Source: Nanoarchaeota archaeon SCGC AAA011-G17
GTDB taxonomy: Archaea > Nanobdellota > Nanobdellia > SCGC-AAA011-G17
Length of the DNA: 64,000 nucleotides
Reading direction: 5' to 3'
Assembly (NCBI GenBank): GCA_000402515.1
Contig: AQRL01000035.1
Coordinates: 36,006-100,005 of the forward strand
The position numbers and the translations under genes were made by a program. Shown piece by piece: positions 8,360-26,364 of this stretch; positions within the stretch are counted from its first letter, which is position 1, and each line of letters starts with the position of its first letter. The notes below the pieces were generated by a model that saw nothing but the letters and a program-made list of their open reading frames with translations, was not told the origin of the DNA and ran no database searches.

Positions 8360-9181
8360 CTATGTGAGTGTATCCAATGGGTATTTTATTTTTTTTAATT
8401 GTTCTTTAGAAACATGAGTATAAATTTGGGTCGTACTAAGCGAGGAATGACCAAGACATTCTTGTATAAACCTTATATCAACACCCGAATCAAGGAGATG
8501 GGTAGCAAAAGAATGACGAAGCTTGTGGGGGTTTACTCTTTTTGCTATACATGCTTTTTCAGCTGATTTCTCCAACAGCTTCTGTATATTACGGGGAGAA
8601 AGAGTATTCTTCTTTCCTGGAAATAAGTATTCATTAGGGGTGTCTAGAGTAGAGATATGATTCTTAAGATCATCTATTATCAGCGGAGAGAGTGTGAAAA
8701 ACCTGTCTTTTGCTCCCTTCCCTCTTCTTACCCACCCTTCTTTCTCTTCCAGACTAAGGTCCTTCACCTTCAGATTAACAAGTTCTGATACTCTCAAACC
8801 AGTAGAATATAACAATTTTATGATCAAGCGTGTCTTGCTTGTTGGTGCTGCATCAATTAATTTCTTGATTTCTTCCCTGGATAAAACTTCTGGTATTTGC
8901 TTAGAAGTTTTAGGCGTCTTAATATTTACAATACCTTTCTTCATCATCTCATCATAAAGAAATTTTAATGCTGATTTTTTCAGAGAAACTGTCTTGCCTG
9001 AAAGTTTTTTTACTGCCATGAGATCTGCCATGTAATCCTTGACATCATCCTCTGTAACTTCTTCCGGCTGCTTTTTTAGTGCTTCCAGGAATAATTTGTT
9101 ATGCCTGACATAGGTGTCTACTGTTCTTTCTGAGAATCCCCTCAATTTTAATTCTGTTTCAAGTTTTTTCAGCATTTCCAT
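8360..9181 (-). CDS. Tyrosine site-specific recombinase (XerA/XerC-like integrase)
   Basis: Catalytic region 'HKLRHSFATHLLDSGVDIRFIQECLGHSSLSTTQIYTHV' (R..H..R..Y). About 270 aa with an N-terminal core-binding domain. Confidence 0.8.
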   Translation of the reverse strand: MEMLKKLETELKLRGFSERTVDTYVRHNKLFLEALKKQPEEVTEDDVKDYMADLMAVKKLSGKTVSLKKSALKFLYDEMMKKGIVNIKTPKTSKQIPEVLSREEIKKLIDAAPTSKTRLIIKLLYSTGLRVSELVNLKVKDLSLEEKEGWVRRGKGAKDRFFTLSPLIIDDLKNHISTLDTPNEYLFPGKKNTLSPRNIQKLLEKSAEKACIAKRVNPHKLRHSFATHLLDSGVDIRFIQECLGHSSLSTTQIYTHVSKEQLKKIKYPLDTLT

Positions 9182-9182
9182 T

Positions 9183-9563
9183 TTATTTCTTAAATATTTT
9201 CCTTTTTCTTTTTAATTCTTCCCATATTTCTCGAGAGATATCCTCTAAATTAAGCCCCAAATCACCCTTGTGCGGTTTAAAAGTTTCTTTAAACAGAGGA
9301 TCTATGCTGTAAACATTTGATAGCTCTTGCTTTGATAATACCTGATGCTCATGCTCACTTAGCACATGAAAACCCCTTTTTAGATCACTTAGATTATATG
9401 CCGAGAAGTATTGGTGAAAGACTGTAATATCTGCCTTAAAGGTAAAATTATCCGGGAAATAATAAAGAATAGTCTTAAGGTCATGAAAACTTACCTTATT
9501 TTTTATTTTTAATGTATCATTCATAGCAATATAAATAGGCAGGAAGTTATAAAGATTACGCAT
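9183..9563 (-). CDS. hypothetical protein (operonic with recombinase)
   Basis: 126-aa ORF. Its stop abuts the start of the XerA-like gene. Confidence 0.3.
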   Translation of the reverse strand: MRNLYNFLPIYIAMNDTLKIKNKVSFHDLKTILYYFPDNFTFKADITVFHQYFSAYNLSDLKRGFHVLSEHEHQVLSKQELSNVYSIDPLFKETFKPHKGDLGLNLEDISREIWEELKRKRKIFKK

Positions 9564-9624
9564 AATTCTGATTAATAAAAAGAATAAAAAAATACAAAAG
9601 AAAAAGTCTAGTTAATCTTTATTT

Positions 9625-9867
9625 TTACAATAATTGTACGTTTTTTGCTTGTTTTCCTCTATCGGTTTCAGTAGCTTCAAAGGATACTTTGTCATTTTCT
9701 TTCAAAAATGCACCTTGCGGCAAGGCTGAGTGATGTACAAAATAATCCTGCCCATCTTCTCCCTGGATAAACCCAAATCCTTTTCTTGAATTAAACCATT
9801 TTACAGTACCTTCCATTCTTGTACCGTCTGTAGTACCTTCTGTACCTTCCTCTTGTTCGTCTGTCAT
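9625..9867 (-). CDS. csp: Cold-shock protein (CspA family, S1-like OB fold)
   Basis: 'GTVKWFNSRKGFGFIQGEDGQDYFVHHSAL' RNP1/RNP2 motifs. Locally GC-richer than its surroundings. Confidence 0.85.
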   Translation of the reverse strand: MTDEQEEGTEGTTDGTRMEGTVKWFNSRKGFGFIQGEDGQDYFVHHSALPQGAFLKENDKVSFEATETDRGKQAKNVQLL

Positions 9868-9946
9868 TTACTTTTCCTCCAATCCTTTAGGATATAATTT
9901 TTGAGAATTTTGTTCTTTTTATAGTTTTGGATTTGAAAATAGATGC

Positions 9947-10513
9947 TTAGAGTGTGTCTAACGGATTCTTTATTCCCTTTAATTGTTTTAATCTATTATC
10001 CTTGAATTTTAAAAAGAGGTCCCAATTCGGTCCTTTTTTGAAGATAAACCATTGTATTTTCTTATTAAAAACGGGTGTTTCCCATGTATTTTCTCCCCTA
10101 GTTATTACCCATACTTCATCGGCTTTTGGTAAATAGTCCAATATTTTATCAATCCTGCATGAACAACATTCTACTACTATAATTCTATCTTCTTTTTCTG
10201 CAAAAATATCCGGTCTAGAACCCAAAAACATTCTCTCAAAATAAATCTCATTATCATTAAATCCTTGCTGGTGTAGAAGAGTTTTAGCTACATATTTCTC
10301 ATCTTTTTGTATTCCTTTGACAAGTAAAAGATCTTCTTTTTCTGGTTTGTTTATGCTTAAAATTTCCCTTTCCTCCAAATCAACCGTTTTATTAAAAATA
10401 AATGATGAGAGAATCATCTCGTCTTTAGGGTTATTATATCTAGAATCGCCTTGATTTAAGATATCATAGACTATCTCCATTGCTTCTTCTTGGGTTTTTG
10501 GGTCTATTCTCAT
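9947..10513 (-). CDS. hypothetical protein, possible PD-(D/E)xK nuclease fold
   Basis: 'GSRPDIFAEKEDRIIVVECCSCRIDK' resembles the D...E.K restriction-endonuclease-like/Hjc core. Weak. Confidence 0.3.
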   Translation of the reverse strand: MRIDPKTQEEAMEIVYDILNQGDSRYNNPKDEMILSSFIFNKTVDLEEREILSINKPEKEDLLLVKGIQKDEKYVAKTLLHQQGFNDNEIYFERMFLGSRPDIFAEKEDRIIVVECCSCRIDKILDYLPKADEVWVITRGENTWETPVFNKKIQWFIFKKGPNWDLFLKFKDNRLKQLKGIKNPLDTL

Positions 10514-11277
10514 TTAAATCCTGCGTTTATTAGCTTATTTTTTGCTTGATCAAATAACTGTTTGTCTATTATTGGTTCATGCTGACCTTCTGACTCCTGT
10601 TTTGCAAATTTGACCTTTCCTAAATAAGTAGTATTTTTGAGTAGTTTTTTTATGCCTGCGGTGGTCATACCATATTTTTTTGCTAGTTTTGTTAGAGATA
10701 TCTCTGAGTTTATAAATTCCTGGAAGATTTGTTTAACTTCTTCTGCTTGTTCTGTATGTGGAACTAGCTTTTTATTTACCATTTTATATCCCTTTGGTGC
10801 TTTTGTAATGAATCCCCCATCTTTTGCTTTTTTTTGCATGCCAAAAGTGGTTCTGTCCCCTATAATATTCCTTTCAAACTCTGCAAAAGCTCCGATTATC
10901 TGGAACATTAACTTTCCGCTTGCACTGGCTGTTTCAATTTTATCTTGCATGGAAATAAAATCAATCCTCCATTCTTTTAGTCTGTCAATAGTTAAAATCA
11001 AATCTTTAAGGCTTCTTGAGAATCTGTCCAGCTTGTAGATAAAAATTGCCTGAAACTTCCTTTCTTCAGCATCCCTAAGTAAATTTATCATCTCTGGGCG
11101 GTTCAGGTCTTTTGCGGATTTTCCCTCATCCCTATAAATTTTGAAAATTTCATAACCCAAGGCTTTTGCATAATTCTGCAGGGAATCTTCCTGGGCATCT
11201 AAAGAAAACCCGTGCTGGGCCTGGTCTTGAGTTGAGACTCTGATGTAAATTGCTGCTAAAGGCTTATTTTGGGTCAT
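10510..11277 (-). CDS. Serine recombinase (resolvase/invertase family)
   Basis: 'AAIYIRVSTQDQ...GFSLDAQ' catalytic Ser motif, 'YKLDRFSRS', C-terminal HTH. The start is probably the internal Met 'MTQNKP'. Confidence 0.8.
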   Translation of the reverse strand: MTQNKPLAAIYIRVSTQDQAQHGFSLDAQEDSLQNYAKALGYEIFKIYRDEGKSAKDLNRPEMINLLRDAEERKFQAIFIYKLDRFSRSLKDLILTIDRLKEWRIDFISMQDKIETASASGKLMFQIIGAFAEFERNIIGDRTTFGMQKKAKDGGFITKAPKGYKMVNKKLVPHTEQAEEVKQIFQEFINSEISLTKLAKKYGMTTAGIKKLLKNTTYLGKVKFAKQESEGQHEPIIDKQLFDQAKNKLINAGFK

Positions 11278-11287
11278 TTTTACTCTT

Positions 11288-11764
11288 TTAATATTTCTTT
11301 GGATATTCTTTAAAATCACTTATAATTTTAGGCATTCCAATCTCATCCACTTGTTTATGAATTTGCATCCAAGAGACCATATCTTTTAATCGTTTTTCTT
11401 TATCCTTGTGCCCGGGAATTTCATTTCTAAATTCTTTTAAGAGGAGGTTATAATTTGGAATTTTAGATAGATTAATTTCTTCTAATTTACATATGTCATA
11501 AAAACTATTTATTTCTAAGATAATATACTGGTTTAATACATCAGAAGGATTAAATCCTGCTTTTATTGAAATCTGATGGGCTTCTAACTTTAGTTCCTTT
11601 TTATGTTCATCTATCAATTCTTTGAAGTCTAATAAACTTAAAATAGTAGCATAAATGTATTTTAAACGAAATTTTGGATCTAGTTCTCCTTTTTTAGATT
11701 CAAGATAGTCCAAAACTTTTTTTGAAGATCCAGATTTTAATATTTCTCTAAATTCTTTATCCAT
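11288..11764 (-). CDS. hypothetical protein
   Basis: 158-aa ORF with coding-like composition. Confidence 0.3.
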   Translation of the reverse strand: MDKEFREILKSGSSKKVLDYLESKKGELDPKFRLKYIYATILSLLDFKELIDEHKKELKLEAHQISIKAGFNPSDVLNQYIILEINSFYDICKLEEINLSKIPNYNLLLKEFRNEIPGHKDKEKRLKDMVSWMQIHKQVDEIGMPKIISDFKEYPKKY

Positions 11765-11933
11765 TTCTCCTCTTTTTTGTGAACTTATGGACTATAATGG
11801 CTCGTCCACAGCAACTTAGGGTGCCCTAAGTATATAAATATTATGGTAAATTTGGGGGTTTAGAAGGCTTAAAATGCTTGTTGGTATTTTTGAATAACTT
11901 TTCGATGATTTTTTATGTTTTTGTATACTTGCT

Positions 11934-12269
11934 TTGATAATGAAAGAAAAAGTGTTTAGGTGCAAACAATGCGGTAAATGCTGCTTGACAACAGAATATG
12001 CTGATATTTCAAAGGAAGATATTGAATTGTGGAAAAAGATTGGCAGGTATGACTTATTTACTCCAGATATGTTGGTGGAATGGGATTATTTTGGTTCATC
12101 TGGATGGTTTAGAAACCAATTGTCTACTAGATGTCCTTTTTTAAGAAAAAAGAAGAATGAAGATACCTATTATTGTAAAATCCATAAAATTAAACCACTA
12201 TTTTGTAGGTCGTTTCCAAAGGACAAAGAACATGCTAAGAACTTTTGTGGTTGTGTTGGTTATCTGTGA
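11934..12269 (+). CDS. YkgJ/UPF0153-family Zn/Fe-S cluster protein (CxxCxxCC)
   Basis: 'CKQCGKCC' and downstream Cys residues. Confidence 0.5.
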   Translation: MIMKEKVFRCKQCGKCCLTTEYADISKEDIELWKKIGRYDLFTPDMLVEWDYFGSSGWFRNQLSTRCPFLRKKKNEDTYYCKIHKIKPLFCRSFPKDKEHAKNFCGCVGYL

Positions 12270-12566
12270 TTAAATTATTATCAAAAGATTTTATTGTTTG
12301 GGATGTGGTTTCTTGCTATACAAACGTTCTATAATCCACATATATATATTATGATTTTATCTGTTTCTTATTCTTCTAGTATGCCCTCTGACCCTTATTT
12401 CTCTATATCTTGGTCTTCTTGTTAAAAACCATAATATAAAAATTATGGCCAGGACCACCAACAAAAATGTTCCAAATCCCATAATAACACCTCTTACGGC
12501 ATATAGATATTTTGATATTTAAACTTTTCTAGAATATTTGTTGTTCAAATAAATGATTTTGTGTTT

Positions 12567-13334
12567 TTAAGATACTGGAATCAAACAAAGAACATCTACT
12601 ATTGGTCCTAATGTTCCACTACTACTTATAAATATAGTAGCTATACAAGCAACATTCCATAAATCTCCTATTTCGCTCTTTGGTTCAGCATATTTAACAC
12701 TACACTCAGTTCCTACTCTTTCTGCTTTTTCACATAAATCCAAAAAACCCTTTTCTTGTTCTACTCTTGAAGCTCCTTCACTTGTTTTAGCATCTATTAT
12801 TTCAATTTTTTTAGGATAAGATTGATGAATCGTGTTATCCCCCTTAACTATCAAAATATCCGGTTCTTTTAAGAAATAGGGGTCTATTTTTTTGTTTAAA
12901 TAATACTGGGTATTTTTTCCACCAATAAGAGTAAAATCTTCTATTTCAACATATCTATCACCAAAGTTTCCAGCTCTTGTTAATTCATCAATTGAGCTAA
13001 AAGAACGTTGTGCTTTCTGTGCATAATATTTCTGAACTGCTTTTTCCCAATCTGCTCCTTTCAGTCCATTATATTTTATTTTTTCTGTTGATGTTTTAAT
13101 TTCTTTCTTAGCCAAATCATCGGCTTCTTTAAAGGTTTTAGTTTCTTGTCTTGATATTTTTTGTGTATCATCAATGTTCTTTTTGACTACATTTCCAGTA
13201 ATCTTAGCCTCTTTAGATGATTTTACTCCCCCCTTGAATATATCACTTAACCAACCCCAACCAGCATTAACTGGTAGGGATATTACTAAAAATAACAAAA
13301 AACCCAAAAGAATAAATCTAATCCCCTTATTCAT
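12567..13334 (-). CDS. Secreted protein with N-terminal signal peptide and Cys-containing C-terminus
   Basis: 'MNKGIRFILLGFLLFLVISLPVNA' signal peptide. Confidence 0.4.
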   Translation of the reverse strand: MNKGIRFILLGFLLFLVISLPVNAGWGWLSDIFKGGVKSSKEAKITGNVVKKNIDDTQKISRQETKTFKEADDLAKKEIKTSTEKIKYNGLKGADWEKAVQKYYAQKAQRSFSSIDELTRAGNFGDRYVEIEDFTLIGGKNTQYYLNKKIDPYFLKEPDILIVKGDNTIHQSYPKKIEIIDAKTSEGASRVEQEKGFLDLCEKAERVGTECSVKYAEPKSEIGDLWNVACIATIFISSSGTLGPIVDVLCLIPVS

Positions 13335-13383
13335 AAATATTTAATATTTTTATTATTTTTAAGGGTTTTGGTGTTTAGAAATA

Positions 13384-14196
13384 TTATCCCCCATTGGTTC
13401 TAAAAAATCCTATAATTCTTTTAGCAAGTTCCACCATCCTTATTTCCTTCTTTTCTGGGTCGTCTGATGTATAAAATGAAACTTTTCCATTAATACTAAT
13501 CTTAAAACTAATGCCTCCCTGTTCTTTTCCTTTTACATAAAGAGGCTTTGAAATCGGGAGGAAACCCCTATCAATTAATCTTGTTTTTTTTAAATTTTTA
13601 TCTTTTTTATGTTCAGTACTAAATCCTGCAGTCTCCCCATACTTTCCATAATCCTCTATTATTTGTTTCATATATTTTGAGGGAAAATGGGGGTTGGGTT
13701 TTATTTTTCCAGGGTCTGTTATTTTTAATATAGAGACTGATTCTGCTTTGGTATAGAATTCCTTTAATAACTTATAATCAAATTCCTTAATCTCTTCTAT
13801 TTTTATTTTACCTGGAAATTTAGAAGATCCCAATGCATCTATTATCCTATTTTTTATTTCCATAAAACTACCTCTTCCAAATCCAAATCCCTCATAAGCA
13901 ATATATCCATCAGAAAAGATAATAACCATCTTTGATTCTGAATCTGTGTAGTTATCTTGTTGAAATCCACTATTTTCCTGATTAAGAAATTGACTTCTAG
14001 AGGGTAAATCTTTATAATAATTAAATGTTAAAAAGTCATTATCTTGTTTAAAATTAAGAAACCCCTTCCTGTTCCTCTTATAAGACCCCCTCATACCAAA
14101 GCTTTTTAAATCAGAGTAAAGAATTTTTATTAAATCTTCCTTTTTTGGAGGGGAACTTATGACCAATCTAGCAAAGCTAAGAGTCACGGATGCCAT
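13384..14196 (-). CDS. hypothetical protein
   Basis: 270-aa ORF. Confidence 0.3.
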   Translation of the reverse strand: MASVTLSFARLVISSPPKKEDLIKILYSDLKSFGMRGSYKRNRKGFLNFKQDNDFLTFNYYKDLPSRSQFLNQENSGFQQDNYTDSESKMVIIFSDGYIAYEGFGFGRGSFMEIKNRIIDALGSSKFPGKIKIEEIKEFDYKLLKEFYTKAESVSILKITDPGKIKPNPHFPSKYMKQIIEDYGKYGETAGFSTEHKKDKNLKKTRLIDRGFLPISKPLYVKGKEQGGISFKISINGKVSFYTSDDPEKKEIRMVELAKRIIGFFRTNGG

Positions 14197-14229
14197 AAAA
14201 TTAATATATCAACAAAGTATATAATCTTT

Positions 14230-14682
14230 ATGGTAAAAAAGAATCTTTTTTTGGAGAATATTGATTTATTTTTTTCAGGGCTCCTATTGATCTTTTTGAT
14301 ATTCTCAAATTACAGGGGGTGGGTTACTATTTTTTTTATCCCAGAACACATTTTTTTTCAAGGATACTTAATAGTATTTGGAGTTGTTCTTGCTGTATTA
14401 ACTATTTTTTTATCTTTGGATGAGAAACTATTTTATGTTTTAGACAAAAGAAATTTTAGAAAATTAACATTCAATATGTTTAAATTTCCCTTAATTGCTT
14501 CTGTTTTGGGATTCCTTCTAACCTTACTAAATCAGGGGGAGAAAAGTATCTGGTTTTTTTTCATAAATGTATCTATCCTTTTATATGTTATTTTATCTTG
14601 TTTTGAATTGTTTAAATTTATTTTTAACATCACTTATGGGATAAAAATAAAAAAAGCGGAAAAAGAATTAGAAAAAAATTAA
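14230..14682 (+). CDS. integral membrane protein (4 predicted TM helices)
   Basis: Hydrophobic helices throughout. Confidence 0.35.
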   Translation: MVKKNLFLENIDLFFSGLLLIFLIFSNYRGWVTIFFIPEHIFFQGYLIVFGVVLAVLTIFLSLDEKLFYVLDKRNFRKLTFNMFKFPLIASVLGFLLTLLNQGEKSIWFFFINVSILLYVILSCFELFKFIFNITYGIKIKKAEKELEKN

Positions 14683-14760
14683 AAAATCCTGAATAGTGGA
14701 ACTTTAGATAAGCTTAAAAGTTTTAAGATTTTATTAAAATTAAGGTGATGGGAGATAAAA

Positions 14761-15099
14761 ATGACTGAAAGAGGAAATAGAAAATATATCAAAAATAAAG
14801 TTTATGAAGATGGGAGATTACCTTCTATCTTGAATGATATAGAATTAGGAGACCTTGTTGAAATTGTTAGTGATGATGATAACAAAGAAGTTCAATTCCC
14901 CCCACTTAAAATGAGTGGATATGTCATAACCTTAGGTTCTATGCAAAGAGAAGAAAATGGTCCGCATTACTTGTGTATTGCACTGAGTGTATTTCACCCT
15001 TCAATGATAGAAGAGATAGGCAGGACACAAAAAGAATGGATGCCAAAGAATCCCCCTATTCCTGCAAAAGATATAGACAAGTATAGAGTTTTATCTTAA
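14761..15099 (+). CDS. hypothetical protein
   Basis: 112-aa ORF. Confidence 0.3.
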   Translation: MTERGNRKYIKNKVYEDGRLPSILNDIELGDLVEIVSDDDNKEVQFPPLKMSGYVITLGSMQREENGPHYLCIALSVFHPSMIEEIGRTQKEWMPKNPPIPAKDIDKYRVLS

Positions 15100-15147
15100 T
15101 TTTTTCTTTCTTTTTTCTCTGTCTAAAACTTTTAAGCAATGTTTAAA

Positions 15148-15675
15148 TTATTTATTTATTTTTTTATAGCCAACATAGATTAGAAGTATTAATGCAACCC
15201 CTGAAATTATGAATCTCAAGTAATCATCCATTGCTGACCAATATCTTATTACACCAACTAATATTGATAGTATCCCCCCAAATAAGAAGCCGTTAGCAAC
15301 TGCATCTACTGATATTACTGTAAGGCCTAAAATCAATGTTATAATGCCCAGGATAGTCAAAATTACAAAAACATTCCGGTCATATACCTCTTTTACTGCA
15401 GTGTATTCCTTATTGCATTTGTAGGTTACATCACAATAACCCATTATTACTGCACCGGTTGCTGTTGCTGTTTTTGGAACTTCTGGCCCTGAATAATGCC
15501 ATAAACCACCTGCATCTGTGCATTCTTTTTCTGTTTGAATATTTTTAGAATAAAGTGTTTCCGGACAGAATTGAGTATATTCTGGTGATTTGTAGAAGGT
15601 AAAAATCCCATAATTAAAAAAAACATTTAATAAAATTACAATCCCTATTGCCAAAGCTATTTGTTTGAATTTCAT
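15148..15675 (-). CDS. membrane protein with signal anchor and Cys-rich ectodomain
   Basis: N-terminal TM, 'CPETLYSKNIQTEKECTDAGG...CDVTYKCNKEY', C-terminal TM helices. Confidence 0.35.
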   Translation of the reverse strand: MKFKQIALAIGIVILLNVFFNYGIFTFYKSPEYTQFCPETLYSKNIQTEKECTDAGGLWHYSGPEVPKTATATGAVIMGYCDVTYKCNKEYTAVKEVYDRNVFVILTILGIITLILGLTVISVDAVANGFLFGGILSILVGVIRYWSAMDDYLRFIISGVALILLIYVGYKKINK

Positions 15676-15684
15676 TTTTTCCTC

Positions 15685-16272
15685 TTATTTTATTGATAAT
15701 AATCTTTTTTCTTTTTCTGTTAATCTTTTGGCTAACTTATGACCCTTATCTGTTAAATTTAAAATAATTTCCCTTCCTTTTCTACTCTTTTTTAATAGCC
15801 CCCATGTCGATAAAATATCTGTATAGTTTGAAACTAAAGATTTAATGTTTATATATTTTGTCCTTGGATAGAGTGTTTCTGCTAGCGCCCTCATTGGGAT
15901 CCATTCCCCACTTGATTCATTAAGAAGATTTACCATTCTCATCAAAAAAACCCCCTGTTGGTCAGTTATTAGGGTTTCAATATCTATTTCTTCATTTTTT
16001 AAAATCTCTTTTCTGGGTTCTTTGTAAGCTTCTTCTCTTTCATCTTCTTTTACTAAATAGCTTTCAAGCTTAGCTAATTTCATTTCTATATCTAATAATC
16101 TTCTATCAAAATTTTTAGAATTGTTTGTGTGGTGAGTATGGACCATATTTATCCGTTCATTTAATTTGCCCATATCACTTTTTATATTAATAAAGGAGTT
16201 CTGGACGGAATTATGAATATGATCTATTTTTTTATGTACGTCCTCTTTTTTTTTGAATAACCACCAAACCAT
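15685..16272 (-). CDS. Coiled-coil + C-terminal winged-helix DNA-binding protein (paralog of 16872..17486)
   Basis: Shares N-terminal 'V.NSFI..K' and coiled-coil with the downstream paralog. C-terminal wHTH 'IPMRALAETLYPRT...LTDKGHKLAKRL'. Confidence 0.45.
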   Translation of the reverse strand: MVWWLFKKKEDVHKKIDHIHNSVQNSFINIKSDMGKLNERINMVHTHHTNNSKNFDRRLLDIEMKLAKLESYLVKEDEREEAYKEPRKEILKNEEIDIETLITDQQGVFLMRMVNLLNESSGEWIPMRALAETLYPRTKYINIKSLVSNYTDILSTWGLLKKSRKGREIILNLTDKGHKLAKRLTEKEKRLLSIK

Positions 16273-16319
16273 TATATATATTAAAAAGTTTTTGTTTAAA
16301 TAGTTTTGGGTGTTCTCTT

Positions 16320-16660
16320 ATGAACTATATGAACGGTTCAGCAACGGTTCAGTGAATCCTGTGAACGTTCAGTGAACGTTCAGTGAACAGTAATTATAAT
16401 AAATTACATGTAAGTACTTACGTAAGTTACGTAAGATGTGTAAGTTACGGTTTATTTTTATATTTCACCGACGGTTTAAGTTGAAGTGTAAGTTACGTAA
16501 GTTACAGATCATGAAAGTGTAAGTGAACATTTGGTGACGTCATAGGAGTATTTTAGTGACGTCAGCGACGCTTTATTTTTAGTGAATATGAAGGAGAAAA
16601 ACGATAATTTATAGGCATCTGTGATGGTTAATCAGCGACGAGGAATAGATTAGTTCGCAC
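16320..16660. repeat. Iteron/palindrome-rich non-coding region (origin-like)
   Basis: Tandem 'AACGGTTCAG' x2. 'GTGAACGTTCA' x3 with a perfect palindrome TGAACGTTCA. 'GTAAGTTACG' family x5. Palindromic 'GTGACGTCA' x2. 'CAGCGACG' x2. Confidence 0.6.
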
Positions 16661-16764
16661 AATAGGGGTGTTTTGAGGAGATATATTAGGTTAATGTGAC
16701 TATATAGAGGAGAGAAAGAGTGAATAAATACGCAAAAAACAAGGGAATTAAGAGGGTTCTATTC

Positions 16765-16812
16765 ATGAATAGGATGTGCACAGACCAAATTAGATGTGTT
16801 TAGGATGTGCAT
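16765..16812. repeat. 46-bp direct repeat, copy 1 (TGAATAGGATGTGCACAGAC...GTGTTTAGGATGTGC)
   Basis: Near-identical to copy 2 at 17497..17541. The pair brackets the wHTH gene 16872..17486. Confidence 0.6.
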
Positions 16813-16871
16813 AAGTGAATAAGTGCATAGAATACAGGTTAAAATTACGTATAAAAATAGAGAAATGATAG

Positions 16872-17486
16872 CTAAAATAGTCTTTTCTGTCCTGGATCGG
16901 ACCCATAGTAAGCGGTGATTATTCTTTCCTTGTAGTTGAGGTTCCTAAAATCATCGAGTATCGAGAGAAAAACAGTCTTATTGTTGTGTTTTTTCTTAAT
17001 TATGGGAGCACCCTTTTGTATCAGAGAGCTTATGTAGGTTCTGATGCATCCTTCGGATAATCCCATCTTTTTTGAGACATCGATATAGGTTACATTGCTT
17101 TTCTGATCCTCCTCTAGCTGGTAGATTGTCAAAAAAGCCAGTAATTCCTGTTTTGTAAGGGTTTTAAGCAGGCTTTCAATGTTCTCAACTACTGTCTTTA
17201 ATCCTGATTTGTCATGTGAATAACTGTTGAATGAATGAATGAATGAATGAATAGACCCTATTTTTTCCTCTGGAACTATTGTGTTTTCTTCACTATTTGG
17301 CTTTGATTTTGTTATTTCCCCCCTTAAATCCTCTATTTTCTTTAGGAGGGTGTCTATTTGTTTGTTTTGCAGAGAAATAAGGTGTCTATTGTCTTCTATT
17401 TCTTTTTCAAGCTTGTCTGCGTGCTTTTTAGCCTCAATAAAGGAGTTTTTTACATTTTCTTTGAAAAAGGGGTCAATTTCTACCAT
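16872..17486 (-). CDS. Coiled-coil + winged-helix DNA-binding protein (iteron-binding/Rep-like candidate) containing a coding tetranucleotide SSR
   Basis: N-terminal coiled-coil. C-terminal wHTH 'TYIDVSKKMGLSEGCIRTYISSLIQKG'. Paralog of 15685..16272. Contains (TGAA)6. Confidence 0.45.
   Translation of the reverse strand: MVEIDPFFKENVKNSFIEAKKHADKLEKEIEDNRHLISLQNKQIDTLLKKIEDLRGEITKSKPNSEENTIVPEEKIGSIHSFIHSFNSYSHDKSGLKTVVENIESLLKTLTKQELLAFLTIYQLEEDQKSNVTYIDVSKKMGLSEGCIRTYISSLIQKGAPIIKKKHNNKTVFLSILDDFRNLNYKERIITAYYGSDPGQKRLF
17228..17251. repeat. (TGAA)6 tetranucleotide microsatellite inside a coding sequence
   Basis: Six perfect TGAA units, encoding 'IHSFIHSF' on the minus strand. Confidence 0.8.
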
Positions 17487-17496
17487 TTTTATCTGA

Positions 17497-17541
17497 ATAG
17501 GATGTGCACAGACAAATTTATATGTGTTTAGGATGTGCTTA
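17497..17541. repeat. 46-bp direct repeat, copy 2
   Basis: Matches 16765..16812 with a few mismatches. Confidence 0.6.
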
Positions 17542-17675
17542 ATATATGTTTAAGTGAATAATTGAATGAATAAATTGAATTCTTCAGAATTTGGGCATTA
17601 GAAGGCTATAAAACCATAAATTTTATAAATAAGCTAACTTTGTTTTTAAAATATAAACTAGTCGAGGTGAATAAT

Positions 17676-20084: not shown

Positions 20085-20363
20085 TTGCATTTTAAGACCT
20101 TGATGAGCCTAATCTCTGATAATAAAAAAGAGAAGATAAGAATGGATATATTAAGATTTCTTTATGATGAATATCCTAAAATGCTTTATACCTATGAGGT
20201 TGCGGATGCACTTACAAGGAATGATGAGTTTATTTTGGGTTTATTAATAGAACTGAGAGATAAAAAAGCAGTACATTGGATTGAAGAGACTAAAGGAGGA
20301 AAGATTAAGAGGAAATGGGGAATGAATGAACTGATATTCAAAACCTATAAGGAATTACTTTAA
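20085..20363 (+). CDS. small winged-helix protein
   Basis: 92-aa ORF, '[40 protein letters not shown]'. Confidence 0.35.
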
Positions 20364-21710
20364 TAACTTTTTAAGAACCAATTCGTGCCCTTTCCAGACC
20401 AGAGCTTCTTTTAGAACATCCTGGATTGTTGATGCGGGAATAATTTTTATCTTTTCCTGATTTTCTTTGGATAATTTAACATCTTGAATATTTGATTGGG
20501 GGATTATAACCCTTGATATACCTGCTTCAATTGCTGCTTCTATTTTTGGAGTAACGCCCCCTACTGCCAATACCTCCCCCCTTATTGATAATGAACCAGT
20601 CATTGCTGTGTCTTGTCTTATTGGAATTCCTTTGAATGCTGAAATGATTGCTGTTGCTACTGCTATTGAAGCTGAATCTCCTTCTACCCCCTCTGAGGCG
20701 GTTTGCAAAAACTGAATAAAAATATCATGTTTAACATCCTCGCCAAAATGTTTTAAAATAATTGCTGAAACATTCTTTACTGCTTCCTTTGCAATTATCC
20801 CAAGCTTTCCTGTTGCTACAAATTCTGATTTTTTTCCGCCGGGGGTTACTTCTGATTCTATTGGCAAGACAATTCCGGAGAATGCAAAACCATCCCCTAT
20901 AACTGCCAGACCATTAACTCTCCCTACTCTTTGTCCTTTTGTTATTATTATATCATATTTTTTCTTGTCTTCTATATACCTGTCTGCCATTTGCTGCTCT
21001 AGTGTTCTTGCGAGTTTTTTTGCTTCAATTATCTGTTTTCTATCTACTACATTTAATCCCTGTTCTTTTGCTAAATCCCCTGCTGCTCTTATTAATCCGC
21101 CAAGCTCTCTTAATCTTAATGTTAATTTCTCGGATGTATTTGCCCTTCTTTTTGCCTCATTTATTATTTCCTGAACAGCTTCATGAGTAAATGGGGGTAT
21201 TTTTTTGTCCTTTGCTATTTCCTGTGCTACAAACAAGGTCAATTTATTCCTGTTTTCCTGCGTATCATCTATCTCTGAATTCATATAAATTTCATAACCA
21301 TAACCCCTTATTCTTGATCTTAATGCAGGATGCATTCTTTTTATTGTCTCAACGTTTCCTGCTGCTACTAAAATAAAGTCTGTTGGAACTGGTTCTGACA
21401 TTGTTGTTGAGCCAGATGAACGTTCGGATTGCCCCTTAATCGGATATTTTTTTTCCTGCATTGCTGTTAAAAGTTCTTGTTGTGATTCTGTTGTTAGTGT
21501 TGCAACCTCATCCATAAATAAAACTCCCCCACTTGACTTGTGAATCATCCCTGGTATTAGTCTCTCATAGGCAGGAGTACCCAGACCCCCTGAATTCTTC
21601 ACTAGAATTCCATTTACTATTAGATTGCCTGACTTTGTAGTTAAATTATACAAATAACCCCTGTAAGACACTTTTTCTATTTTCTTTATTTTTTCTGTTT
21701 TTAGTTCCAT
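20355..21710 (-). CDS. lonB: LonB protease, C-terminal part: intein C-segment (39 aa) + AAA+ remainder + Ser-Lys protease domain
   Basis: Begins '[39 protein letters not shown]' (intein blocks F/G), then '[29 protein letters not shown]' (LonB sensor region). Catalytic 'GDSASIA' and a downstream Lys. Confidence 0.85.
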
Positions 21711-22115
21711 TTTTCCAATGATTGTTGTGTTAGGATGAAATTTAATATATTATTATTTTACAAAAACTTCTTCCCCTTTTTTTAGTTTTGAGGCTTCTGT
21801 ATACTGCTTTTTTCCTTTGTTATTAACTGCTATTTTGTGCTCTGGTGTAACTAACAACGTTTTCCCTGACTCTGTTGTTATTTTATATAGATAGGGTTTG
21901 TCTGATTTGTATTTATTAACTGAAAGTACTTCTACAGGCTGGATTTTCCCATTCTTTTCTGCTAATATGTATAATTCATCTTTTTTAAGATATACTGCTA
22001 TGTATCCCTTTTTCTTAATTAATTCTTTTTCGTGCTTTTTTAGTATTTTATTTACTTCTGTTGAAATATTTACTTTTTTTCCATTTTTTATGAGTTTATT
22101 GTTACCACTAAATGA
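21594..22115 (-). other. Mini-intein in LonB interrupted by tandem in-frame TAA TAA stops (N-segment 120 aa, C-segment 39 aa)
   Basis: Block A 'SFSGNNKLIKNGKKVNI' and block B 'LLVTPEHKIAV' lie in the upstream ORF. Blocks F/G '[21 protein letters not shown]|S' lie in the downstream ORF. Both are in the same frame, separated by TAATAA + 13 codons + ATG. Confidence 0.75.
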
Positions 22116-22730
22116 TTGTAACGGGTCATGAAGTACATCACCAAGCAATGCCCCTATTCTCGCCCCTGTTGCATCTAAGAAGGGTGCCTTTGACTGCTTA
22201 GAGTTATCAATTAGTAATTTTGGTATTTGTATTTTTGAAAAATTTATTCTTTTTCCAATATTAATAAATAAAATAAATCCTGCTAAGAATATCATTGAGC
22301 CTATCAGTGATGCTGCGGCCATTATATCTCCATATTGCTTTCTTACTATCCATGGGGTAATTAGAGAGATTATTAACAAAACAAAGAAAAGTATATTCTG
22401 GTTTTTTGTTGAAGCAACTGCCTGAATTTTTAGTTTATCTACTATTTCCTTTCCTTTTCCCTTTGCAACTGTTTTTATTAATGGGGTGTTATCATCAATG
22501 GGATTTGGATAAGACAAAATATCTTGTAATTTTTCTTCTGGCAATAATTCTGCAAGACCCTGAGCAAGCATACTCTTACCTGTTCCCGGATCTCCAATAA
22601 GAAGGATGTTTCTTCTTTGTTTGGCTGCTTTCTTGATTAAATTTACTGCTTCATTCTGACCTATAATCTGGTCTACTAATTTCTCCGGTATTTTAAGTTC
22701 CTTAGTTGTTTTAAATTTTAGATTGGTCAT
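21753..22730 (-). CDS. lonB: LonB protease, N-terminal part: AAA+ Walker A + membrane anchor + intein N-segment
   Basis: 'GDPGTGKS' Walker A. Two TM helices inserted in the ATPase domain (the archaeal LonB hallmark). 'PFLDATGARIGALLGDVLHDPLQ', then the intein N-segment. Confidence 0.85.
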   Translation of the reverse strand: MTNLKFKTTKELKIPEKLVDQIIGQNEAVNLIKKAAKQRRNILLIGDPGTGKSMLAQGLAELLPEEKLQDILSYPNPIDDNTPLIKTVAKGKGKEIVDKLKIQAVASTKNQNILFFVLLIISLITPWIVRKQYGDIMAAASLIGSMIFLAGFILFINIGKRINFSKIQIPKLLIDNSKQSKAPFLDATGARIGALLGDVLHDPLQSFSGNNKLIKNGKKVNISTEVNKILKKHEKELIKKKGYIAVYLKKDELYILAEKNGKIQPVEVLSVNKYKSDKPYLYKITTESGKTLLVTPEHKIAVNNKGKKQYTEASKLKKGEEVFVK

Positions 22731-23023: not shown

Positions 23024-23099
23024 GACTTGTGTAGAATGTTAGGTTATTTATATACTTTTCTTTTATTTAATGCAGATTTTTGAGTTTATGTTGGATATA

Positions 23100-23459
23100 C
23101 CCACACACCTATATTTCGTATGGAGTAATGGAGATTATTATTTCTTATGAATAACTTTTATTTATTATTTATTAATTAGTTTCTTTTTTAGTTAATAAGC
23201 AAATGGTTAATTTCGATGATTTTGGGGTATGATAAAATGATAGTAGAAGGCTTGTATTAACTTATCTCTATTTCCCATTATAAATTTTTCTATGTTATAT
23301 TATATTATATACTATTATATATATTTTGTATTATACTTTTTAGAGTGTTATAACTAAAAAGTTCTATGAGAAACATAGGTGTTCTTGATGAGTGATTATA
23401 ACTGAAAAGATGGCTAAGTTTCAGCAATACAATCTCCATAGGCAATGATGGTGTGGGTG
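23100..23459. promoter_or_regulatory. Candidate chromosomal replication origin (oriC): inverted ORB-like repeats flanking an AT-rich unwinding region, directly upstream of orc1/cdc6
   Basis: 'CCCACACACC...TATGGAGTAATGGAGATT' at 23100..23136. Its inverted partner 'AATCTCCATAGGCAATGATGGTGTGGGTG' at 23431..23459. About 295 bp of (TA)n-rich DNA in between. Direct repeats 'T(G)ATTATAACT(A/G)AAAAG' x2 at about 23351 and 23391. Confidence 0.5.
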
Positions 23460-23509
23460 TTATTTCCTTTAAAGAAAATTCTTAAAAGCAAGCAGATGAT
23501 TTTAGTTAT

Positions 23510-24715
23510 ATGGTTAAGGTAGATTTAAACAATTTTTTTAAGGATTATCTCGATAAGAAACCCTTAATTCTAAATAAAAGATCATTACAAAATAATTATA
23601 CCCCAAGTGAGATTCCCCATAGGGATGAACAGATAAAGCAAATTGCTGGGATTCTTGCACCTAGTCTGAGAATGGAAAAACCATCTAATCTATTCATTTA
23701 CGGAAAAACGGGAACGGGCAAGACAGTTGTTACAAAATATGTCACTGAACAAATAATCAGCGCAAGCAAGGAAAAAAAGATACCACTAAAGGTATTTTAC
23801 TTAAATTGCAAGATGAAAAGAGTTGCTGATACTGAGTATAGAATAATTTCTCAATTGGCAAAGGCCTTTGGTGAAGAGGTTCCTGCCACTGGTTTGCCAA
23901 CAGATGAGGTTTATAGACTATTTTTAGATGCAATAGATAAGGAAAAACAGCTATTAATCTTAATTTTAGATGAAATTGATCAATTAGTCAAGAAAGCAGG
24001 CGATGAAATTCTTTATAATTTAACAAGATTAAGCTCTGAATTAAAAAATGTTGAGATTTGTATAATTGGAATAAGTAATGATTTATTATTCACAGAGAAT
24101 ATAGATCCTAGAGTAAAAAGTTCTTTAAGTGAAGAGGAATTGGTGTTTCCTCCATATAATGCCTTGCAATTACAGGATATTTTGAGAACAAGGGCAAATT
24201 TGGCATTTAGGCCAAATGTTTTGGCAGATGGTGTTATTGAAAAATGTGCGGCTTATGCTGCTAGAGAGCATGGGGATGCAAGAAGGGCCTTAGAATTGTT
24301 GAGAGTAGCTGGTGAATTAGCTGAAAGAAAGAACGAGGATAAAGTAGTTTTAGACCACTTGGATGAAGCAGAAGAGAAAATTGAGAAAGATAGAGTACTT
24401 GATGTTATTAATACACAGCCCAAACAATTCCAAATTACTTTACATTCTATTCTATCTTTGGATTTAGAGAATGAAAGTATTTTTACCGGAGATTTATATG
24501 ATGTTTATAAAACTAATTGCTTAACAATGGGATTAAAACCATTGACACAGAGAAGAGTTTCTGATATTATAGCTGAATTAGATATGTTAGGAATTATTCA
24601 TGCAAAGGTAATTTCCAAGGGAAGATATGGCAGAACCAGACAAATTTCCGTGGCAATCCCCCCCTCAACAATTCCAAATATAAAAAACAGTTTGAAAGAA
24701 AATTTAGGTTTATGA
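23510..24715 (+). CDS. cdc6: Orc1/Cdc6 replication initiator (AAA+ with C-terminal winged helix)
   Basis: 'YGKTGTGKT' Walker A. 'LILDEID' Walker B. The wHTH is at the C-terminus. 401 aa. Confidence 0.9.
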   Translation: MVKVDLNNFFKDYLDKKPLILNKRSLQNNYTPSEIPHRDEQIKQIAGILAPSLRMEKPSNLFIYGKTGTGKTVVTKYVTEQIISASKEKKIPLKVFYLNCKMKRVADTEYRIISQLAKAFGEEVPATGLPTDEVYRLFLDAIDKEKQLLILILDEIDQLVKKAGDEILYNLTRLSSELKNVEICIIGISNDLLFTENIDPRVKSSLSEEELVFPPYNALQLQDILRTRANLAFRPNVLADGVIEKCAAYAAREHGDARRALELLRVAGELAERKNEDKVVLDHLDEAEEKIEKDRVLDVINTQPKQFQITLHSILSLDLENESIFTGDLYDVYKTNCLTMGLKPLTQRRVSDIIAELDMLGIIHAKVISKGRYGRTRQISVAIPPSTIPNIKNSLKENLGL

Positions 24716-26364
24716 ACGAGAACATCAGTTATTTTTTGAAAAGGGGTTTTTTGGTATCTCCTGATTTTTTAGATAAATTGAATTCTATTGATAAATCTGA
24801 ATTTTTTAAATTAATAGAAGAAAAAATAAATAATAAGGAGAATCTTATTTTATTAAACAATGATTTGAGCTCGAATATCTTTAGCGGGAACAAGTTAACT
24901 CTTAACTGGCTGGAATTTGATAATTCAAGAGTACTTTTTGAAAAAAATAAAAATAGTGAATTGTATAAAACTTTTTTGGATATCTTGAGTTATGATTTAG
25001 ATTCAAACAAAAAAGAAGAATTAAATCATTTATTAGAAGAAGTGAAAATAGATGAAAAAAATTTAGGATTAGCAGAAGAAAATGGCGATGAAAACAATGT
25101 TATTATCCTAAAATCTTATAATGATGAGTCTAAAAAGAGGGATATTCAGGATTTTGTTGCCTATTTTAAAAACAGATATGAATTTTTGAAGGAGGTATTA
25201 TCAAACAGAAAAGAATTACAAAATGCGATTTCGATTAAAAGATTGTTAGGCAGAGATAAGAATGAGAAAGGGGCTGTTTCTTTAGTAGGATTAATTTATG
25301 ACAAAAATATTACAAAAAATGGAAATATAATATTAAAATTAGAGGATAAAACAAGCATAATACCCCTAATTATTACTAAAAATAACCCCGAGATTTTTAA
25401 TTTAGCAAATAATCTGGTTTTAGATGAGGTTATAGGTATTAATGGCTTTTGTGGGGATAATGTTGTTTTTGTAAATAGTATTTTTTTCCCGGATGTTCCA
25501 CTAACAAAAGAATTAAAGAAATGTAATGAAGAAGTTTATTGTGTTTTTACTTCCGACTTACATATTGGAAGTAAATTATTTTTAGAAGAGGATTTTAGCA
25601 GGTTTATAGATTGGTTGAATTGTAAGGATTGTAATGATGAAGAAAAGAAGATTGTTGAGAAGATTAATTATCTTTTCATAGTGGGAGACCTTATTGACGG
25701 CATTGGCATCTATCCAGGGCAAGAAGAGGATTTGATTATAAAAGACGTATATAAACAATATGAAAAATTTGTTTATTTTATAACTAAGATTCCAAAAAGA
25801 ATAAAAATAATTATTTGCGGAGGAAATCATGATGCACTAAGAATTTCTGAACCCCAGCCAATATTAGAAAAAAATTATGTTGGGTCCTTATATGAAAAAG
25901 ATAATATTTTTTTTGTTACAAACCCTTCATTAGTGAATATTCAATCTTCAAAGGATTTTTCTGGTTTTGATGTTTTGATGTATCATGGATATAGTTTCCC
26001 TTATTTTGCAGATCTTGTTGATGCTATAAGAATGGAAGGGGGGCAGAAGAGGGCCGATTTAATCATGAAATTTTTATTACAAAGAAGACATCTTGCTCCC
26101 ACACATACTTCAAATTTATACATACCAGATGCCAATCAAGACCCCTTACTTATTGATAAGATTCCTGATTTTTTTATCACAGGGCATATCCATAGAGTAA
26201 ATAGTATCAATTACAGAAATATAACCGGACTGAATTGTGGGTGTTGGGTTAGCCAGAGTGAAGAGCAGAAGAAGAGAGGATTGGTTCCAGACCCATCTAA
26301 GATTTTTTTGGTTAATTTACAAACTAGAGAGGTCAAAATAAGAGATTTTAGTAAAAATGAGTAA
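24712..26364 (+). CDS. DNA polymerase II (PolD) small subunit DP1, calcineurin-like phosphoesterase/exonuclease
   Basis: Metallophosphoesterase motifs 'FTSDLHIGS', 'VGDLIDG', 'CGGNHD', 'GHIH'. Overlaps cdc6 by 4 nt and DP2 by 8 nt. Confidence 0.85.
   Translation: MNENISYFLKRGFLVSPDFLDKLNSIDKSEFFKLIEEKINNKENLILLNNDLSSNIFSGNKLTLNWLEFDNSRVLFEKNKNSELYKTFLDILSYDLDSNKKEELNHLLEEVKIDEKNLGLAEENGDENNVIILKSYNDESKKRDIQDFVAYFKNRYEFLKEVLSNRKELQNAISIKRLLGRDKNEKGAVSLVGLIYDKNITKNGNIILKLEDKTSIIPLIITKNNPEIFNLANNLVLDEVIGINGFCGDNVVFVNSIFFPDVPLTKELKKCNEEVYCVFTSDLHIGSKLFLEEDFSRFIDWLNCKDCNDEEKKIVEKINYLFIVGDLIDGIGIYPGQEEDLIIKDVYKQYEKFVYFITKIPKRIKIIICGGNHDALRISEPQPILEKNYVGSLYEKDNIFFVTNPSLVNIQSSKDFSGFDVLMYHGYSFPYFADLVDAIRMEGGQKRADLIMKFLLQRRHLAPTHTSNLYIPDANQDPLLIDKIPDFFITGHIHRVNSINYRNITGLNCGCWVSQSEEQKKRGLVPDPSKIFLVNLQTREVKIRDFSKNE

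Follow-up and report, generated by a model that had tools for sequence, protein, structure and literature searches.

Candidate operator bank upstream of a winged-helix gene near the probable chromosome origin of a nanoarchaeon

Introduction

The immunity regions of lambdoid phages are mosaics of repressor and operator specificity cassettes. In the ParR/parC, TubR/tubC and omega partition systems, the repeats lie directly upstream of the operon that encodes the binding protein. The sites of AspA and SegB are also repeats upstream of the binding-protein operon (PMC5120986). Here we examine an array of short repeats in a 64,000-nucleotide stretch of the genome of Nanoarchaeota archaeon SCGC AAA011-G17 (contig AQRL01000035.1; "the window", numbered from its first letter). 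The array occupies part of a non-coding spacer of 599 bp (16273-16871) that separates the genes of two paralogous winged-helix proteins, which we call B and A. A first-pass annotation had placed it between the two genes, which is correct; both are on the minus strand, so the array is upstream of B and downstream of A.

That annotation took several iteron classes packed beside winged-helix genes to be a plasmid- or virus-type replication origin or partition site, or a control region. We conclude that 16320-16570 is probably an autoregulatory operator bank for B, that is, an upstream control region rather than an origin. DPANN archaea are uncultivated, and to our knowledge almost nothing is known of their transcription factors.

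Results

Repeats and CG dinucleotides cluster upstream of gene B

No other part of the window departs as far from the rest as 16320-16570, either in internal repeats or in CG dinucleotides. For internal 8-mer repeats, the best 350-bp interval scored 60; the whole window, simulated 60 times with a first-order Markov model, never exceeded 17, and the real sequence elsewhere never exceeded 18. The array has 17-18 CG per 350 bp, whereas the mean is 3.05 and the highest counts are 12 in the simulations and 10 elsewhere in the window. CpG is depleted in this genome (observed/expected 0.35), and the 599-bp spacer holds 8 of the 36 ACGT tetramers; the palindromes TGAACGTTCA, TTACGTAA and TGACGTCA all have a CG or ACGT core. 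When single motifs were counted over the whole window with one mismatch allowed, none was individually significant, but their clustering was, and the exact motifs have zero further occurrences in the window. The clustering of motifs in 16320-16570 is far beyond chance. The dense multi-family array first reported at 16320-16660 is thus real: each of its motifs was recovered in place, and nowhere else in the window do they reach a comparable density.

Nearest to B is the promoter-proximal array (16320-16390), which we call T1-like and which is built of alternating TGAAC and GTTCA half-sites with an 11-bp period. TGAAC lies at 16321, 16330, 16362, 16373 and 16384, with a TGAAT variant at 16353, and GTTCA at 16336, 16347, 16367 and 16378. 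The block includes two exact copies of AACGGTTCAG (16332 and 16343) and two of the perfect palindrome TGAACGTTCA (16362 and 16373), followed by a truncated unit, GTGAACAG, at 16383. Of the three head-to-tail copies of GTGAACGTTCA originally described, two are therefore full units and the third is truncated. Delineation with Tandem Repeats Finder gave 5.5 copies of the 11-bp unit over 16330-16388. A short AT-rich inverted repeat, GTAATTATAATAAATTAC (16389-16409), divides the proximal from the distal arrays; its AT content is not above that of the 69% AT genome, and it is too short for an unwinding element.

The first distal array, T3a (16410-16449), consists of 9-bp units (GTAAGTACT, TACGTAAGT, TACGTAAGA and GTAAGTTAC) with overlapping TTACGTAA palindromes, and it aligns with the GTAACTTAC and GTGACTCAC arrays of L003-L008 (L numbers denote loci of relatives). 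A spacer at 16447-16483, which holds two copies of ACGGTTTA (16447 and 16471), separates T3a from T3b (16484-16528), where AAGTGTAAGT occurs at 16484 and 16515 and GTAAGTTACGTAAGTTAC at 16488-16505. The same layout of two T3 blocks split by an A/T-rich spacer is found in L003 and L006. Exact GTAAGTTAC occurs four times (16422, 16440, 16488 and 16497) and degenerate GTAAGT units three times (16410, 16431 and 16519), a qualification of the earlier count of at least five copies; Tandem Repeats Finder gave 3.6 and 2.0 copies of the 9-bp unit. The last distal array, T2 (16530-16570), comprises TTTGGTGACGTCA and TTTAGTGACGTCA, then CAGCGACG. Its palindrome TGACGTCA lies at 16535 and 16557, 22 bp apart, and GTGACGTCA occurs exactly at 16534 and 16556; (T)CAGCGACG has exact copies at 16562 and 16632. 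The block retains the sub-structure TGACGTCA..TAGGAG.. of the full T2 arrays of relatives (L031, L035, L042, L044, L049, L072 and L073).

Beyond T2 is a repeat-poor stretch (16571-16763) with a second TCAGCGACG at 16632-16640; its identity to close relatives is about that of the flanks, and it carries no coding or RNA signal. Repeat-bearing DNA nonetheless extends past the limit of 16660 originally assigned to the array, to a pair of TAGGATGTGC boxes at 16770 and 16801. Read in the direction of B transcription (minus strand), the spacer runs from the A stop codon through the A-box pair, the repeat-poor part, T2, T3b, T3a, the AT-rich inverted repeat and the T1-like array to the core promoter and ATG of B.

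The spacer contains no open reading frame (ORF) of 40 or more codons, and its small ORFs are not conserved. One of these (MHILFMNRTLL...) was rejected as a gene because it is shared with L072 only across near-identical DNA, after which the two diverge in frame, and is absent from L003. Rfam searches of the whole window at gathering thresholds, and of 16200-16950 at E≤1, returned only a chance rli45 match, and a scan for transfer RNA and transfer-messenger RNA found none. An array of clustered regularly interspaced short palindromic repeats (CRISPR) was also dismissed, as it had been from the start: the units are 9-11 bp and head-to-tail, whereas CRISPR arrays require repeats of 24-48 bp with unique spacers.

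We considered whether the palindromes act as nucleic-acid structure, either as hairpins of an attenuator or small RNA, as cruciforms, or as a decayed mobile repeat like a miniature inverted-repeat transposable element. The array does fold better than shuffled sequences (RNA z = -4.0; DNA z = -3.4 for the proximal block), and a degenerate copy of the A promoter lies upstream at 16764-16815. However, a good fold is automatic for palindromes, Rfam provides no match, and the array is upstream of the B TATA box and predicted transcription start site. Moreover, relatives keep tandem identical units of wholly different sequence, not stems with compensatory changes. The occurrence of these units nowhere else in 64 kb, together with a 17-mer metagenome search that returned one true relative among chance-level matches, argues against a dispersed mobile repeat. 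We consider a structural role of this kind very improbable.

The array abuts the promoter of a putative DNA-binding protein

Gene B (15685-16272, minus strand) encodes a 195-residue protein with a predicted coiled coil and winged helix. It begins with a hydrophobic-basic tip (MVWWLFKKK), which is kept in kind across the B family; residues 3-80 are modelled as the long helix, 80-94 as an acidic, disordered linker and 98-194 as the winged helix. AlphaFold2 gave B and A one architecture, in which a disordered linker joins a single long helix to a C-terminal winged helix, with predicted local distance difference test (pLDDT) scores of 85-94 for the winged helices and 81 for the B model. In Foldseek searches, both winged helices matched MarR/ArsR chains with a probability of 1.0 and E of about 1e-3, and the nearest solved structures are DNA-bound. 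The B matches at this level were MarR/ArsR-type regulators and AspA, TubR and F-93, which are small winged-helix proteins of archaea and plasmids; by sequence, AspA is the best match to the B winged helix in the PDB (E 0.007-0.011). B reaches no Pfam or NCBIfam threshold, and the gathering scores of Pfam MarR, HTH_5 and HTH_20 are among those not reached, so B may work like a MarR/ArsR-type autoregulator but is not a member of these families. An ESCRT-III/CdvB-like identity, suggested by the MxxxLFKK tip and C-terminal winged helix, was rejected since the single helix of about 75 residues is not an ESCRT-III core.

The B core promoter (16294-16311, minus strand) comprises a TATA box, CTATTTAAAC (16294-16303), and a sequence like the transcription factor B recognition element (BRE), ACCCAAAA (16304-16311). 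These assignments follow the usual BRE/TATA geometry of archaeal promoters. With its centre some 26 nt from the B ATG, the TATA box implies a leaderless or near-leaderless mRNA. Only 9 bp separate the end of the array from the BRE/TATA. Gene C (15148-15675, minus strand), which starts 10 bp past the B stop codon and is probably co-transcribed with B, encodes a predicted 175-residue membrane protein with a Cys-rich loop; C follows B only in the closest clade (6 loci). The position of the array and the predicted fold make B the candidate reader of the promoter-proximal block.

Arrays accompany gene B in relatives and differ in unit sequence

We retrieved 61 genome loci and several metagenome loci with A, and B homologues found separately with a B profile had the same genomic context. 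In most loci, overlapping palindromes and tandem units, rich in CG, are clustered within 60-100 bp directly upstream of a TATA-like box of B. A TATA-like hexamer starts 25-34 nt before the B ATG in 31 of 41 loci, and at -45 in one more, while the last CG of the array is usually at -37 to -63. In the 120 bp upstream of the B core promoter the median CG count is 8, against 0.95 in the background, and in 28 of 38 Woesearchaeota loci no more than 1% of background windows match the count. In L050, L053, L030 and L023, where the two genes are widely separated, the array stays beside B and not A. The units repeat with a period of 9-12 bp, and each array holds 3-6 copies of one unit, as expected for protein sites and not for an RNA stem. 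The description of the array as a control region beside winged-helix proteins therefore applies to dozens of relatives, in which it abuts the BRE/TATA of B.

The arrays fall into types, each of which accompanies a particular form of the predicted B recognition helix. Type T1, GAAC(C)GTTCG with a central TAGACGTCT, is found in L009, L010, L011, L013, L020, L029, L032, L034, L041, L043, L063 and L064, with the helix (V/I)RST(I/L)S(E/Q)Y. T2, TGACGTCA or TGACGCGTCA, occurs with VRSM(M/I/L)S(D/E)Y in L031, L035, L042, L044, L049, L072 and L073. T3 arrays, of GTAACTTACG(CG)TAAGTTAC in L056, L058, L040 and L006 and of GTGACTCAC in L003, are paired with (V/I)RP(M/L)xS. Type T4, CACCGAACCGTTCGGTGACGTCACC, goes with IRSTITQF (L045, L046, L047, L055, L057 and L060), and T5 comprises CG-poor TTGTTTAGTTA or GTTAACTG arrays (L016, L019, L024, L012 and L059). 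Arrays of the TGAAC(C)GTTCA type are accompanied by the helix (K/R)SL(V/L/M)S(N/S)Y in the window, L071, L025 and L012, and by an SM form (IRSMISTY) in L018. The window stacks three operator-type blocks that other genomes carry singly.

Two further features were seen in the relatives. In L068 (5540-5640; similar in L066, L067 and L069), a B-like gene convergent to A has a linker encoded by five copies of the 12-bp repeat GGACACGTGTTT, which form CACGTG palindromes and translate to TRVQTGVQTRVQT; operator-like repeats thus lie inside coding sequence. A motif of the form CTCTCACTTTT or CGAACTCTCACTTT is found directly past the A stop codon, often two or three times per spacer, in L012, L016, L040, L045, L059, L061, L063, L064 and others; the window has at most a weak form. 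The motif may serve as a T-tract terminator or be bound by another protein.

The array changes together with the B winged helix

Pairs of related loci link the array to one domain of B. L071 is the nearest relative with the same type of B winged helix; its B protein is 63% identical to that of the window (73% in the winged helix), and its TGAACGTTCA proximal array is nearly identical. In L072 and L073, the N-terminus of B is 64% and 51% identical to that of the window, but the winged helix only 33% and 24%. These two loci carry TGACGTCA arrays beside the promoter in place of the window's proximal type, and their recognition helix is that of L031-L049. Similarly, L003 and L006 share 87% identity in the B N-terminus and 47% in the winged helix, and the unit changes from GTGACTCAC to GTAACTTAC.

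We compared two pairs segment by segment using sliding nucleotide identity. Between L003 and L006, the housekeeping flanks are about 70% identical, gene A is 93-100% identical (including the first 200 bp of the gap), the array 42-69%, the B N-terminus 82-98%, the B winged helix 54-66% and gene C 91-97%. Between the window and L072, the corresponding values, with gene A taken alone, are 82-97% (mostly 85-97%), 60-84%, 32-57%, 72-79%, 29-57% and 43-79%. Because the array and the winged helix are separated by other sequence, their joint change is not explained by hitch-hiking alone. In a partial Mantel-type test over 39 loci, 7-mer similarity of the arrays correlated modestly with identity of the B winged helix (partial rho 0.27, permutation p 0.001); the values were 0.14 for the B N-terminus and 0.15 for A (p 0.014). 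These patterns suggest that the array unit and the B winged helix are matched in specificity and that, from one lineage to another, the pair is exchanged or diversifies as one.

The correlations bear on whether a factor other than B reads the array, with B merely the regulated gene. The reader could be A, an A-B heterodimer or an unrelated regulator. The two proteins share an N-terminal NSFxxxKxD coiled-coil segment, which makes heterodimers conceivable; A is always adjacent, its boxes lie at the distal end of the same spacer, and the correlation with A identity is weak but positive. On the other hand, the A winged helix is near-invariant across lineages with unrelated arrays. In the comparison of the window with L072, as in that of L003 with L006, the array changes with the B winged helix and not with A, and it goes with B where the two genes are far apart. 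We consider another reader unlikely, and B, on this correlation, the presumptive binder.

The same comparisons indicate that the module has a history of its own. A, B and C are near-identical where the housekeeping genes are about 70% identical (L003 7735-10190 versus L006), and strongly diverged where these are about 90% identical (window 15300-17450 versus L072). Such decoupling from the flanks implies that the module has been exchanged horizontally or has undergone gene conversion. Arrays also change on a shorter time scale. In L078, B is 95% identical to that of the window, the proximal block is 100% identical and the distal blocks are about 95% conserved. This locus has 23 and 67 bp of extra array blocks (L078 1180-1300 versus window 16587-16630; GTCACGTGACTCA...) that are homologous to the distal arrays of L072 and missing in the window. 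Indels that distinguish near-identical genomes thus add or remove entire distal blocks.

Gene A has boxes of its own

Gene A (16872-17486, minus strand) encodes a 204-residue paralogue of B. The A helix spans residues 6-60; the disordered linker (62-95) carries a conserved YSFIHSF motif, and the C-terminal winged helix is near-invariant (LTKQEFLTFLTIYQLEED...LSEGCIRTY). The A family has more than 100 members in metagenome bins labelled "Nanoarchaeota/Woesearchaeota", and the B family is much more divergent. The paralogy of the two, already proposed from the first reading, was evident at family level: hhalign aligned the families over the N-terminal helix and the winged helix (probability 97%, E 8.8e-11), whereas pairwise BLAST between A and B was not significant. 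We found no further paralogues of either protein in the window. A meets no Pfam or NCBIfam threshold; its closest matches were DnaD_N (23.4 bits against a cut-off of 27, E 7e-5), HTH_36 (16 bits against 25, E 0.011) and TIGR04548 (E 7e-4), and PADLOC and NCBIfam scans yielded sub-threshold noise only.

The A promoter/operator (17487-17545, minus strand) consists of a TATA box, ATATAAAT (17517-17524), between two TAGGATGTGC boxes at 17498 and 17529, 31 bp apart, and the layout in L003 is the same. About 60 bp past the A stop codon is a duplicate of some 55 bp of this promoter (16764-16815, minus strand), in which the boxes at 16770 and 16801 enclose a degenerate TATA and keep the 31-bp spacing. 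The window holds four copies of TAGGATGTGC in all, each at the A promoter or its copy, and at least one box of this type is present in the spacers of L003, L006, L071, L072 and L073. With its near-invariant winged helix, A probably reads this constant box, which is distinct from the arrays.

Sequence related to the TAGGATGTGC boxes also occurs within the A coding region of L003. The A linker is encoded by a tetranucleotide microsatellite, (TGAA)6 at 17228-17252 of the window, which reads (TTCA)n on the coding strand and translates to SFIHSF. Microsatellites are also present in L003 (8235-8260) and L009 (8235-8275), and the L003 clade has (ATAC)n, encoding HTYIHT. Synonymous sites in the microsatellite are fixed (TCA for 16 of 16 Ser codons and TTC for 13 of 14 Phe codons), while the rest of the gene has mixed usage. 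This suggests constraint at the DNA level, such as slipped-strand phase variation or an internal operator.

The locus is chromosomal and close to a probable canonical oriC

A probable chromosomal oriC lies at 23098-23461, about 6.5 kb from the array. Origin recognition box (ORB)-like boxes, CTCCATAnGnAAnaTAGGTGTGnGG (CTCCATA..TAGGTGTG.GG), are inverted around an AT-rich core (23130-23340); they are found at 23125 (minus), 23362 (plus) and 23434 (plus), which are the sole matches to the pattern in the window, so that 16273-16871 contains none. The boxes are followed by orc1/cdc6 (23510-24715) and the PolD genes DP1 and DP2 (24712-31330), cumulative GC skew reaches its minimum at about 22-23 kb, and L003 has the same arrangement. 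The chromosomal origin is thus accounted for near 23 kb, and not by the array.

The surrounding genes form a conserved block, cdc6 <- oriC -> PRC-Lon-(86 aa)-ArgRS-p145-A-[gap]-B...XerA. Within 5-kb flanks of 68 loci, p145 was present in 60, B in 55, ArgRS in 49 and XerA in 43. Synteny conserved in about 50-60 of the 68 Woesearchaeota loci indicates that the A-B module is core and chromosomal, and the A-array-B block is 5-7 kb from oriC in every locus with cdc6 in range. We also looked for mobile relatives. An A profile had zero relatives in IMG/VR, and tblastn searches of A against PLSDB and INPHARED and of B against PLSDB had zero matches. The exact word GTAAGTTACGTAAGTTAC had 0 viral matches. 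The 17-mer GTGAACGTTCAGTGAAC had 3 viral and 88 metagenome matches, of which only L078 encodes a B relative. By rough estimate, that number of matches is about the chance level for a 17-mer, given the size of the collection.

These results weigh on the proposal of an iteron-type replication origin, be it a second chromosomal origin or that of an integrated plasmid or virus, with one of the winged-helix proteins as a Rep-like initiator. Several families of 9-11 bp repeats do lie beside winged-helix genes, in tandem as iterons would be, though many units are overlapping palindromes; A has its weak DnaD_N-, HTH_36- and TIGR04548-type similarities, and recombinase genes are present within 5-8 kb. 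Those similarities fall below curated cut-offs, however, so that neither protein enters a Rep family, and fold searches point to MarR/ArsR regulators instead. The AT-rich stretches, as read from the sequence, are only about 20 bp (16389-16409 and 16450-16465) in a genome of 69% AT, and genes for a helicase or primase are absent. The arrays of most relatives are blocks of 60-100 bp against a TATA box, and none of the three viral contigs with exact array words encodes a relative of A or B. Given also the canonical oriC, the core synteny and the searches for mobile relatives, we regard an iteron origin as highly unlikely.

Proximity to oriC raises another explanation, namely that the array serves as a centromere, or as a site of chromosome organisation, near the origin. 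On this view B, perhaps together with A, would coat the repeat bank and tether or segregate the origin region, and the sites would double as operators. Such an archaeal tether would lack a nucleoside triphosphatase (NTPase): B dimers on a lineage-specific bank would be linked to the membrane through the MVWWLFKKK tip, whose membrane binding is conjecture, and, in some clades, through C. The repeats do lie directly upstream of the operon of their presumed binder, and protein and sites diversify together rapidly, as in incompatibility determinants. The match of AspA to the B winged helix and the presence of AspA and TubR among the top structural matches are also in line with this explanation. 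Against it, this resemblance is generic to small winged helices, since MarR/ArsR regulators score equally at E of about 1e-3; gene C is limited to one clade; and the array in most genomes is so short as to hug the TATA box. Furthermore, Pfam domains of partition NTPases (ParA/SegA, ParM and TubZ) were absent from the neighbours of the module, in the window and in its relatives. We therefore consider a centromere or tether quite unlikely. If it were true, the co-replacement of array and winged helix would reflect self-specific recognition, for the avoidance of incompatibility, and not ordinary regulation. Neither half of the assignment as a plasmid/virus-type origin or partition site is supported.

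Other features of the neighbourhood were recorded. XerA is 1-3 kb from B in most relatives. In the window, hypothetical ORFs and a serine recombinase gene (10510-11319) occupy 9183-15100, between B/C and a XerA-like tyrosine recombinase gene (8360-9181), and this segment is probably an inserted or variable island. The array was considered as a XerA dif site and rejected, because the arrays are not one 28-bp site and track B rather than xerA. The Lon gene (20355-22730) is divided between two ORFs that bear Hint/intein signatures, PolD DP2 (26357-31330) has an intein with a LAGLIDADG domain, and stand-alone LAGLIDADG ORFs are found at 53-1192 and 33375-34691.

Discussion

The reading we favour is that the array is an operator bank through which B controls its own expression. 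B is presumably a dimer that carries two MarR/ArsR-like winged helices on flexible acidic linkers. Each winged helix would contact one 9-12 bp unit, and several dimers would fill the proximal block cooperatively. Occupancy of that block would then control access of TFB and the TATA-binding protein to the BRE/TATA of the putatively leaderless B-C operon. As to the sign of regulation, repression by occlusion of the BRE is slightly favoured.

The composite structure of the bank can be accommodated in this model. The promoter-adjacent block in the window is of the type found with window-like B winged helices in L071 and L078. The distal GTAAGTTAC (16410-16528) and TGACGTCA (16530-16570) blocks belong to types that lie next to the promoter in sister genomes whose B proteins have different winged helices. 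Most probably they are left over from earlier cassettes; alternatively, they are sites for B-type paralogues encoded elsewhere in the genome.

Several points weigh against autoregulation by B. Arrays are CG-poor or not obvious in L059, L012, L016 and L021. All three partial correlations are positive because the parts of the module are co-inherited. On structural grounds, inverted half-sites 5-6 bp apart and same-orientation repeats 9-12 bp apart do not fit a rigid MarR-type dimer, and the model assumes a flexible tether. The distal blocks may be functional rather than relics, since their palindromes have stayed perfect in a genome depleted of CpG and L078 shows about 95% conservation of these blocks. 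Fast co-diversification of regulator and operator is unusual for a housekeeping autoregulator and more typical of immunity or incompatibility determinants. Finally, the locus is always origin-proximal, and the B winged helix weakly resembles the centromere-binding proteins AspA and TubR.

The locus amounts to a natural set of specificity swaps, with at least five unit types, each accompanied by a distinct recognition helix within a conserved protein and promoter frame. A winged-helix recognition code is directly testable here with synthetic proteins and oligonucleotides. The A-B module, moreover, evolves far faster than its housekeeping flanks beside oriC and recombines independently of them, which points to a function under pressure from conflict or self-recognition. 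There is also a warning for annotation: iteron-like arrays beside winged-helix genes are insufficient to call an origin.

Among known systems, the MarR/ArsR autoregulators (MarR, ST1710 and SmtB/CzrA) share with B the winged-helix fold, palindromes beside the core promoter of their own gene and, presumably, dimer formation. In contrast to these, B would dimerise through its N-terminal coiled coil with a disordered tether rather than through the MarR helical interface. The arrays have 3-6 overlapping palindromes with a 9-12 bp period where MarR/ArsR proteins have one or two operators, and here two paralogues, below the Pfam and NCBIfam thresholds, stand in tandem. The plasmid partition sites (ParR-parC of R1, TubR-tubC, omega heptads, AspA of pNOB8 and SegB) also have repeats upstream of the binder operon and lineage-specific specificity, and AspA and TubR weakly resemble B. 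Unlike those systems, the present module is chromosomal, has no gene for a partner NTPase or adaptor, and encodes a presumed binder with a coiled coil.

Iteron plasmid origins likewise have direct repeats of about one helical turn beside a winged-helix gene. This locus differs from them in that the array abuts a TATA box, with only short AT-rich stretches and no Rep-family protein or plasmid/virus context. Archaeal oriC regions, with ORB or mini-ORB sites for Orc1/Cdc6, are similar in having repeated boxes of protein-binding type in a long intergenic spacer; the ORB-like boxes of this genome differ from the array in sequence and lie at 23.1-23.46 kb, beside orc1/cdc6. The lambdoid immunity regions involve unrelated proteins in a phage context that is absent here, but they offer an analogy for the apparent joint exchange of a specificity domain and multiple operators while flanking parts of the module recombine freely. 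What distinguishes the present locus from all of these is the combination of an uncharacterised, DPANN-specific module of two paralogues beside oriC, an unusual tethered coiled-coil architecture, a composite bank, and cassettes of protein and DNA specificity that appear to be swapped together.

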